Shown piece after piece: positions 62,829 through 64,000 of a stretch of DNA of 64,000 nucleotides. The translations under genes were made by a program, and so were the position numbers. The notes under the pieces were generated by a model. That model was not told where the DNA came from, searched no databases, and saw only the letters and a program-made list of their open reading frames with translations. The first letter of the stretch is position 1. Each line of letters starts with the position of its first letter. Location: NCBI RefSeq assembly GCF_057098645.1, contig NZ_CM169472.1, one strand, 5' to 3'.

Positions 62829-63230
62829 CTATTTCATCCCGCCAATATTTTCCCACGTCCCGTCAGCACGCAGGATTTGCAGCGGTCTTACCACACACTG
62901 TATCTGCTTTTTATCCGCATCCAGTATCACCACCTGCGTGATTACCCTGGCCTGCTCCGGAATAATACCATTCTCATCTGACTCCAGGATGTCTGCCGGC
63001 CCCAGACGCAGTTGTGCTGTAAGTAACTCCCCGTGTTCACGGTCATCATGCTTTCCGTACCCGCACAGACGCTGCATAAGTTTTTTTAGTACGTTCATGT
63101 CATTCTCCTGTTCTGCCTGTATCACTGCCCACTTCATCCAGCCCCTTAACATCCTGCCACGGCCCGTCACCAAACCTGACCTGCAAATGCTGAAACAGCC
63201 CCTGAACCTGTGTGGCATCTTTGGGGTCAA
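62829..63230 (-). CDS. Hypothetical protein (possible prophage-derived gene; true start uncertain)
   Basis: 133-codon ORF starting at TTG; first ~45 residues are Arg/Gly/Cys-rich and look non-coding; a more plausible product starts at MNVLKKLMQRLCGYG (~89 aa). No family recognised. Confidence 0.35.
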   Translation of the reverse strand: MTPKMPHRFRGCFSICRSGLVTGRGRMLRGWMKWAVIQAEQENDMNVLKKLMQRLCGYGKHDDREHGELLTAQLRLGPADILESDENGIIPEQARVITQVVILDADKKQIQCVVRPLQILRADGTWENIGGMK

Positions 63231-63269
63231 GAAAGGTCAGTCCGGTGATGAGCGCACCATCTGTACCCG

Positions 63270-64000
<731 letters not shown>

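Follow-up and report, generated by a model that had tools for sequence, protein, structure and literature searches.

A stand-alone PfC gene beside an IS629-truncated side tail fibre gene and the nleB2 effector cassette

The small open reading frame between nleB2 and the end of an IS629 element in a 64,000-nucleotide stretch of DNA (contig NZ_CM169472.1 of assembly GCF_057098645.1; this whole stretch is hereafter the window) is almost certainly an intact gene for an 89-residue stand-alone PfC (Phage_fiber_C) protein of EHEC/EPEC-type lambdoid prophages, with Sp5 ORF68 and Sp3 ECs0845 as homologues. The gene itself is ordinary, already annotated and already known; an earlier, sequence-only reading of the window spotted it correctly and wrongly thought it unassignable. 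The correct map of the region comprises the intact small gene, a fibre gene truncated by the insertion sequence, a terminator and then the effector cargo. The gene is among the most repeated small genes of EHEC and EPEC genomes and accompanies the side tail fibres of the phages by which Shiga toxin and type III secretion system (T3SS) effectors are spread. Its public annotations conflict, naming it a chaperone, a frameshifted alternate tip or plainly a "tail fiber protein", and a settled role would sharpen understanding of the host range of these phages.

An intact 89-codon gene within a 133-codon frame

The listing of open frames in the window contains a frame of 133 codons on the minus strand (62829..63230) with a TTG start. 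Its existence had been noted in the sequence-only reading, and its last 89 codons are exactly as quoted there. These 89 codons form the gene (62829..63098, minus strand), which starts with an ATG at 63098, ends with a TAG stop at 62829-62831 and is defined by its open frame, its matches to PHROG 576 and PF06820, and its pN/pS. The product consists of an N-terminal segment of 27 residues followed by a PfC domain of 62 residues. A Shine-Dalgarno sequence, AGGAG (63105..63109, minus strand), is located 6 nt 5′ of the ATG, inside the last codons of the preceding fibre gene.

The upstream 44 codons of the frame (63099..63230, minus strand) are open but not coding, with the fibre gene running through them in the +1 frame. 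Selection was compared in a set of 85 copies, made up of 80 IMG/VR loci, four annotated loci and the window. In most of these copies the upstream extension (44-46 codons) is open, and in 3/85 a stop occurs 13 codons 5′ of the ATG. The DNA upstream of the ATG showed a pN/pS of 1.66 in the small-gene frame versus 0.26 in the fibre frame, while the 89-codon gene showed 0.12 overall across 63 distinct intact alleles. The upstream third of the 133-codon frame is the fibre gene read in the wrong frame. Thus, the earlier impressions that the N-terminal third looks non-coding and that the C-terminal ~89 residues look protein-like were both borne out. The frame had also been described as ending 40 bp inside IS629; its 5′ end at 63230 is in fact 39 nt short of the element, and position 63270, which had been given as the end coordinate, is the first base of the IS.

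The 89-residue protein gives a full-length match to PHROG 576 ("tail fiber protein"; positions 1-89 of 89, E 3.8e-59), and its residues 28-89 match Pfam PF06820 (Phage_fiber_C) over profile positions 1-64 of 64 (E 1.3e-34). WP_001101707.1 of E. coli O55:H7 RM12579 has the identical sequence (100%), whereas the O157:H7 copy is 90% identical; RefSeq names both "phage tail fiber C-terminal domain-containing protein". Searches of NCBIfam and PADLOC returned no match. The protein, which the sequence-only reading could not place in a family, belongs to a Pfam family, a PHROG and a named RefSeq protein family. Among the options offered there, a small phage accessory protein proved apt, since the ORF is a conserved late gene of phages, present in full and linked to the side tail fibre.

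Of 5,426 complete E. coli genomes, 697 (13%) contain the 270-nt gene, with 6,796 occurrences and a median of 11 copies per positive genome, which is far beyond what a chance ORF would show. It was also present in 296 phage records, mostly of Stx-converting phages. The family is nevertheless narrow: only 99 matches at E ≤ 1e-3, many of them fragments, were obtained when its profile was searched against 1.84 billion cluster representatives. Constraint is distributed unevenly along the protein, pN/pS being 0.045 for the PfC domain and 0.29 for codons 1-27 (63 distinct alleles). A divergent homologue of 79 aa (P0131) retains both the N-terminal motif M.I.KK...L.GC.K and the PfC domain. Absence of the gene from related fibre modules and a pN/pS near 1, either of which would speak against this identity, were both checked, and neither was observed. 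A possible lipoprotein signal (LCGC) in the N-terminal segment was considered and rejected on reading the sequence, as it is without a hydrophobic core and its second Cys is replaced by Tyr in the window copy. Peptides of the small protein include LGPADILESDENGIIPEQDR, VITQVVILDADK, QIQCVVRPLQILR and ADGTWENIGGMK.

The truncated fibre gene and its junction with the small gene

Immediately upstream of the small gene is the 3′ remnant of a collagen-like side tail fibre gene of the EPclA type (63100..63269, minus strand; residues 383-437 of 437, with the TGA stop at 63100-63102). The remnant comprises the last 55 fibre codons, lies in a different frame from the small gene and includes the C-terminal half of the PfC domain that ends the fibre itself; it matches PHROG 366 at positions 422-473 of 474. 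The intact fibre has 437 residues arranged as PfN, coiled coil, collagen repeats and PfC (PfN, Collagen and PfC by Pfam). In a tblastn search it matched the window only at residues 381-437 (98%), and its 5′ 380 codons were absent from the whole window, whose end falls inside IS629.

The fibre gene is interrupted by the right end of an IS629/IS1203 element of the IS3 family (63270..64000, minus strand), which continues past the end of the window. Its terminal inverted repeat starts at 63270 with the sequence TGAACCGCCCC, the breakpoint being taken from an alignment to an uninterrupted relative (L003). The 3′ part of the transposase gene orfB (63312-63980, minus strand) lies within the element and is transcribed towards the small gene. 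RefSeq labels identical IS DNA "IS3-like element IS1203 family transposase", and IS1203 is an isoform of IS629. The exact insertion junction was found in none of the 5,426 complete E. coli genomes, nor in IMG/VR, and contigs encoding the identical 89-residue protein show other contexts than the IS junction of the window. The insertion within the PfC-coding region of the fibre appears to be strain-specific. Other strains carry IS629 at different positions of this fibre gene; in one relative (L002), for instance, it lies 1,022 nt 5′ of the small gene.

It had been suggested that the ORF might itself be the 3′ remnant of a gene whose 5′ part was lost at the insertion. This description fits the neighbour at 63100-63269, the fibre gene in the other frame. 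It does not fit the small ORF, which starts at an ATG of its own, is preceded by a Shine-Dalgarno sequence and covers all 89/89 positions of PHROG 576. The small gene here is an orphaned yet undamaged relic, whose partner fibre gene was cut by IS629. The sole obvious transcription into the orphaned gene would be read-through from the IS629 transposase, which runs in the same direction.

In all related copies the two genes are joined in the same way. The ATG of the small gene is positioned 1 nt after the fibre stop, and the arrangement of fibre 3′ end, TGA, C and ATG, with AGGAG, was observed in 85/85 copies. Two variants of a 31-nt junction stretch (25 nt upstream plus ATGAAY) cover 81/85 copies and differ solely at the third position of codon 2. 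Third-position diversity is 0.02-0.03 in the last 12 fibre codons, compared with about 0.10 in most blocks. This synonymous dip fits a translation signal, but is suggestive only, as other blocks are equally low. Separate translation is also favoured by the low degree of RNA structure at the junction (z = +2.11). The small protein would accordingly be expected to be translated separately from the AGGAG/ATG, with its initiation coupled to termination of the fibre gene.

A different reading of the junction is found in the GenBank note on phage AU6Stx1 (KU977420), in which the gene is called atfT, "alternate tail fiber tip". Ribosomes would shift at the fibre stop (GAA-UGA-C) and read into the small ORF, producing a fibre with a tandem second knob; the annotation predicts a slippery sequence and a pseudoknot. 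The small ORF does occupy the +1 frame, and if the T of TGA is skipped, ...TGE-D-MNVLKK... can be read without interruption. In addition, UGA-C is a weak stop context and has the SD-like AGGAG upstream, as in prfB, where RF2 autoregulation depends on UGA-C and an upstream SD-like element. A closer reading of the site, however, reveals that re-pairing after a +1 shift (to AAU) is impossible for GAA in the P site, in contrast to the CUU to UUU shift of prfB, and that AGGAG overlaps the shift codon (...AGGAGAA-UGA-C) instead of lying 3 nt upstream of it. Stable structure is absent both around and after the shift site: over 136 nt centred on this region, the RNA folds less well than shuffled sequences do (z = +2.11; 197/200 shuffles fold at least as well), and an Rfam search of 62600-64000 returned nothing meaningful. 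The longer overlap frame annotated as atfT is without coding constraint, given the pN/pS of 1.66 upstream of the ATG. Of the 169 homologue clusters, 120 were listed, and no hard-wired fusion of the fibre to the small ORF is among these; the longest of them has 131 aa. No frameshift signal was found in the analysis of Sp5 either (Mondal et al., 2016, PMC5155283). Programmed frameshifting into the small ORF is therefore regarded as very improbable.

The terminator and the effector cargo

An intrinsic terminator hairpin (62787..62817, minus strand) with a 14-bp stem, a 3-nt loop, an A-tract before and a U-tract after it is located 12 nt past the TAG stop. Its folding energy is −27.9 kcal/mol (z = −4.68), none of 200 shuffled sequences was as stable, and it is kept in 79/85 of the related copies. 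The terminator that the sequence-only reading had assigned to the frame was thus confirmed by folding. A consensus terminator scan missed the hairpin, the T-run being partly inside the stem, while direct folding detected it. The hairpin closes the transcription unit of the fibre and the small gene ahead of the nleB2 cargo. In relatives, RefSeq annotates a 108-nt pseudogene ("hypothetical protein, missing N-terminus") in the interval from the small gene to nleB2. Its position in L003 (3721-3828) corresponds by offset to 62720-62827 in the window, where it overlaps the hairpin.

The first effector-cargo gene past the terminator is nleB2 (61672..62652, minus strand), identified from the RefSeq annotation of relatives. 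In O55:H7 and O157:H7 the gene order is J, lom, a tail fibre of 437/438 aa, the 89-aa gene and nleB2-nleC-nleH1-nleD, and the order in the window is alike. RefSeq annotations of these and other genomes consistently have the 89-aa gene right between the PfN-Collagen-PfC fibre and nleB2. Across the related loci, the sequence beyond the terminator changes completely: at least 15 unrelated downstream cargo clusters were observed, including NleB2, NleH, NleC, leucine-rich-repeat effectors, NleG, IS elements and others. When conservation beside nleB was examined, the small gene was found to stay with the fibre in 85/85 copies, whatever the cargo. Since the junction and the terminator are conserved while the cargo beyond them varies, the small gene and its terminator constitute the last conserved element of the phage late operon. 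The pair of fibre and small gene travels together through lambda-type J/lom siphovirus modules, 933W/Sp5-type podoviruses and a Baseplate_J/Caudo_TAP module. Because the pair travels together and the cargo differs, the small gene belongs with the fibre and not with the effectors.

These observations bear directly on the proposal that the ORF is not phage-structural, being either a chaperone or regulator of nleB2 that serves T3SS effectors, or a chance or decayed ORF. An effector-associated factor was among the options of the sequence-only reading; the small gene does adjoin nleB2, and its operon is broken by the IS in the window. Nevertheless, its linkage in all copies is to the fibre, irrespective of the 15 or more types of cargo. 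The G+C content of the small gene is 0.51 (0.51-0.55 for the small gene and fibre remnant), compared with 0.34 for nleB2 and 0.34-0.44 for the nle genes, and the terminator separates the small gene from nleB2. The gene is also under strong purifying selection and gave no PADLOC match. Synteny, composition and selection together effectively refute an effector-associated or chance ORF, and the option of an effector-associated factor is left unsupported.

The remainder of the cassette consists of nleC (60619-61638, minus strand), nleH1 (58911-59801, minus strand) and nleD (57982-58680, minus strand), and beside it is intS (56683-57885, plus strand). In the window, nleB2-nleC-nleH1-nleD directly adjoins intS, near yfdC and mlaA, which is the argW-side integration region. 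The same cassette is at the bioA/ybhB end in O157:H7 and O55:H7 (prophage Sp3/CP-933K), and the intS-side arrangement was seen in few complete genomes, for example F2_81 and UTME-3. RefSeq annotations of relatives place gene debris among the effector genes: a 3′ fragment of Tfa, a fragment of a YkgJ-family gene and a fragment of an IS256-family transposase. By offset from L003, these positions in the window are about 59960-60116 and 60395-60508, plus the gap between nleD and nleH1; a 65-aa ORF of the window (60395-60592) coincides with the start of the YkgJ fragment position. Such debris fits repeated exchange of cargo at the site.

Two further loci illustrate the mobility of these modules. 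In L091 (GCA_964043615.1, 5572-7270), the collagen-PfC end and the 89-aa gene are found beside Baseplate_J and Caudo_TAP genes, with three nleG genes next; the fibre there, of 475 aa, diverges in its N-terminal domain and has a longer stretch of collagen repeats, while its collagen-PfC end is shared. In L005 (OM418627, Lambda h434 imm21, 1-7267), J, lom, a 437-aa collagen-like stf and the 89-aa gene are followed by an nle cassette of nleB fragments, nleC, an nleH fragment, an IS1414 fragment and nleD. The depositors of this phage place the effector genes in phage 434-derived DNA, and the 434 arm appears to carry a T3SS-effector cassette like that of the window.

Kinship with the fibre knob and the proposed role

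The C-terminus of the fibre and the small protein both match PF06820 and are 28-32% identical. Eleven positions are invariant across both knobs (R31, I37, G44, I53, T54, L59, L73, Q74, D79, G80 and W82). The small protein differs in carrying a non-collagen N-terminal segment of 27 residues and in being without the 11-residue C-terminal tail of the fibre (EVGSDTGRTGE). Its PfC domain is also the more constrained of the two, with a pN/pS of 0.045 versus about 0.25 for the fibre knob, which is unusual for a receptor-binding tip.

The 64-residue PfC of the fibre protein has been characterized. EPclA is a trimer, its PfC trimerises alone and re-nucleates the collagen helix, and recombinant EPclA produced on its own in laboratory E. 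coli assembles into stable trimers without the small protein (Ghosh et al., 2012, PMC3368898). By analogy with this domain, the small protein would trimerise like the fibre knob. AlphaFold2 models were of low confidence, with a pLDDT of 50.7 for the 89-aa monomer (10-sequence alignment) and 35.4 for a trimer of copies linked through GGGGS (16-row alignment). Sequence and profile searches of solved structures returned chance matches alone (bacterioferritin, E 0.22; an optineurin coiled coil, E 0.004).

A different possibility is that the small ORF matters mainly as DNA. According to the proposal made for Sp5 ORF68, it would be a recombination reservoir (Mondal et al., 2016, PMC5155283), a spare knob cassette that replaces the fibre C-terminus and varies host range, with little or no role for the protein. 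Rare chimeras do exist. In cluster P0063 (four member sequences), collagen repeats are joined to a small-ORF-type PfC at a shared GPA motif, and this junction coincides with the only identical run of 14 nt shared by the two PfC segments, CGTCTGGGGCCGGC. In P0127, an N-terminal half of the small-ORF type is followed by a C-terminal half with a fibre-type PfC. Both may be genuine recombinants or artefacts of assembly or annotation. However, the two PfC-coding segments are only about 50% identical in nucleotides (111/229 aligned columns), which makes them a poor substrate for homologous exchange. The paralogue types are also kept apart, with a fibre-type knob in 75/75 cleanly readable fibre 3′ ends and a small-ORF-type knob in 85/85 small genes. 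Among the clusters listed, those of the small ORF have hundreds to >1,000 members each, compared with four for the chimera. Moreover, a silent cassette would have no need for a conserved ATG, a Shine-Dalgarno sequence, an unstructured initiation region and a constrained N-terminal segment. A reservoir function is thus improbable as the main role of the gene.

A diversity-generating retroelement was also considered and rejected, the two PfC segments being ~50% identical and no reverse transcriptase being present among the genes annotated or called in related loci. As a separate observation, a distant fibre-like protein of 565 aa (P0148) contains four tandem repeats of ~90 residues, each closing with a PfC-like motif (VVVLDAD...LRVRQADGTWKEIPA), and has collagen repeats after them, which suggests that the PfC core motif exists as a repeat unit outside the enterobacterial family.

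The position of the small gene, directly downstream of the fibre gene and translationally coupled to it, is canonical for a tail fibre assembly chaperone, and the depositors of OM418627 (Lambda h434 imm21) annotate it as such. A classical chaperone of the kind of lambda Tfa or T4 gp38/gp57A would be needed for folding or trimerisation of the fibre. The protein, however, shows no similarity to Caudo_TAP/Tfa (PF02413), PF06820 being its only Pfam match and NCBIfam giving none, and the tail module of L091 has a genuine Caudo_TAP gene upstream of the fibre/small-gene pair. The stable trimers formed by EPclA alone, with PfC refolding the collagen helix unaided (PMC3368898), also argue against such a need. 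In the study of Sp5 late genes, the homologue ORF68 was classed as non-essential and the fibre ORF67 as essential; the ORF68 mutant was infectious and the fibre mutant was not (Mondal et al., 2016, PMC5155283). An obligatory chaperone is therefore judged improbable, to much the same degree as the reservoir.

Because EPclA trimerises alone and Sp5 ORF68 is non-essential, the small protein is not needed for basic infectivity, and any role it has is auxiliary. [quoted passage not shown] Of the forms that this partnership could take, the more probable one, put forward tentatively, is a second or accessory knob at the distal end by which adsorption is modified; a dispensable assembly helper seems rather unlikely. 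More speculatively, a free trimer of the knob paralogue might dock onto the distal knob of the fibre or compete with it, acting as a swappable second tip or as a soluble decoy released at lysis, a possibility that is somewhat doubtful. If this were true, a separately encoded tip or decoy would tune the adsorption and host range of these prophages. No fibre accessory derived in this way, from a copy of the domain by which the fibre itself trimerises, has been described before. The text on phi24B virion proteomics does not mention the small protein, and a literature search for "atfT/alternate tail fibre tip", or for virion proteomics naming the protein, found nothing usable.

Several known systems invite comparison. 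The junction resembles that of prfB (RF2) in its UGA-C stop, upstream SD-like sequence and downstream ORF in the +1 frame, but is without a re-pairing P-site codon, proper SD spacing and supporting structure. Lambda Tfa, Mu U and T4/T2 gp38 are similar in gene order and in translational coupling to the fibre gene. The T2-type gp38 remains on the fibre tip as the adhesin, and this is the kind of role proposed here for the small protein. The small protein has no sequence relationship with these proteins and, unlike Tfa and gp38, is paralogous to the tip of the fibre itself; folding of the fibre does not depend on it, and its Sp5 homologue is dispensable.

With the PfC domain of EPclA and EPclB (Ghosh et al., 2012, PMC3368898), the small protein has in common PF06820 and the invariant core residues, but it is ~30% identical and free-standing, with its 27-residue N-terminal segment and without the EVGSDTGRTGE tail. 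The closest relatives are ORF68 of Sp5 (VT2-Sakai), the equivalents in 933W and phi24B, WP_001101707.1 and WP_001024022.1, which are the same gene of 89 aa at 90-100% identity. The loci of the Sp5 ORF68 type and the window have the same position past a collagen-like fibre, the same junction and the same terminator. The gene of the window is no different from these; what distinguishes the locus is that its fibre gene is truncated by IS629 and that the element is beside intS and not at the bio locus.
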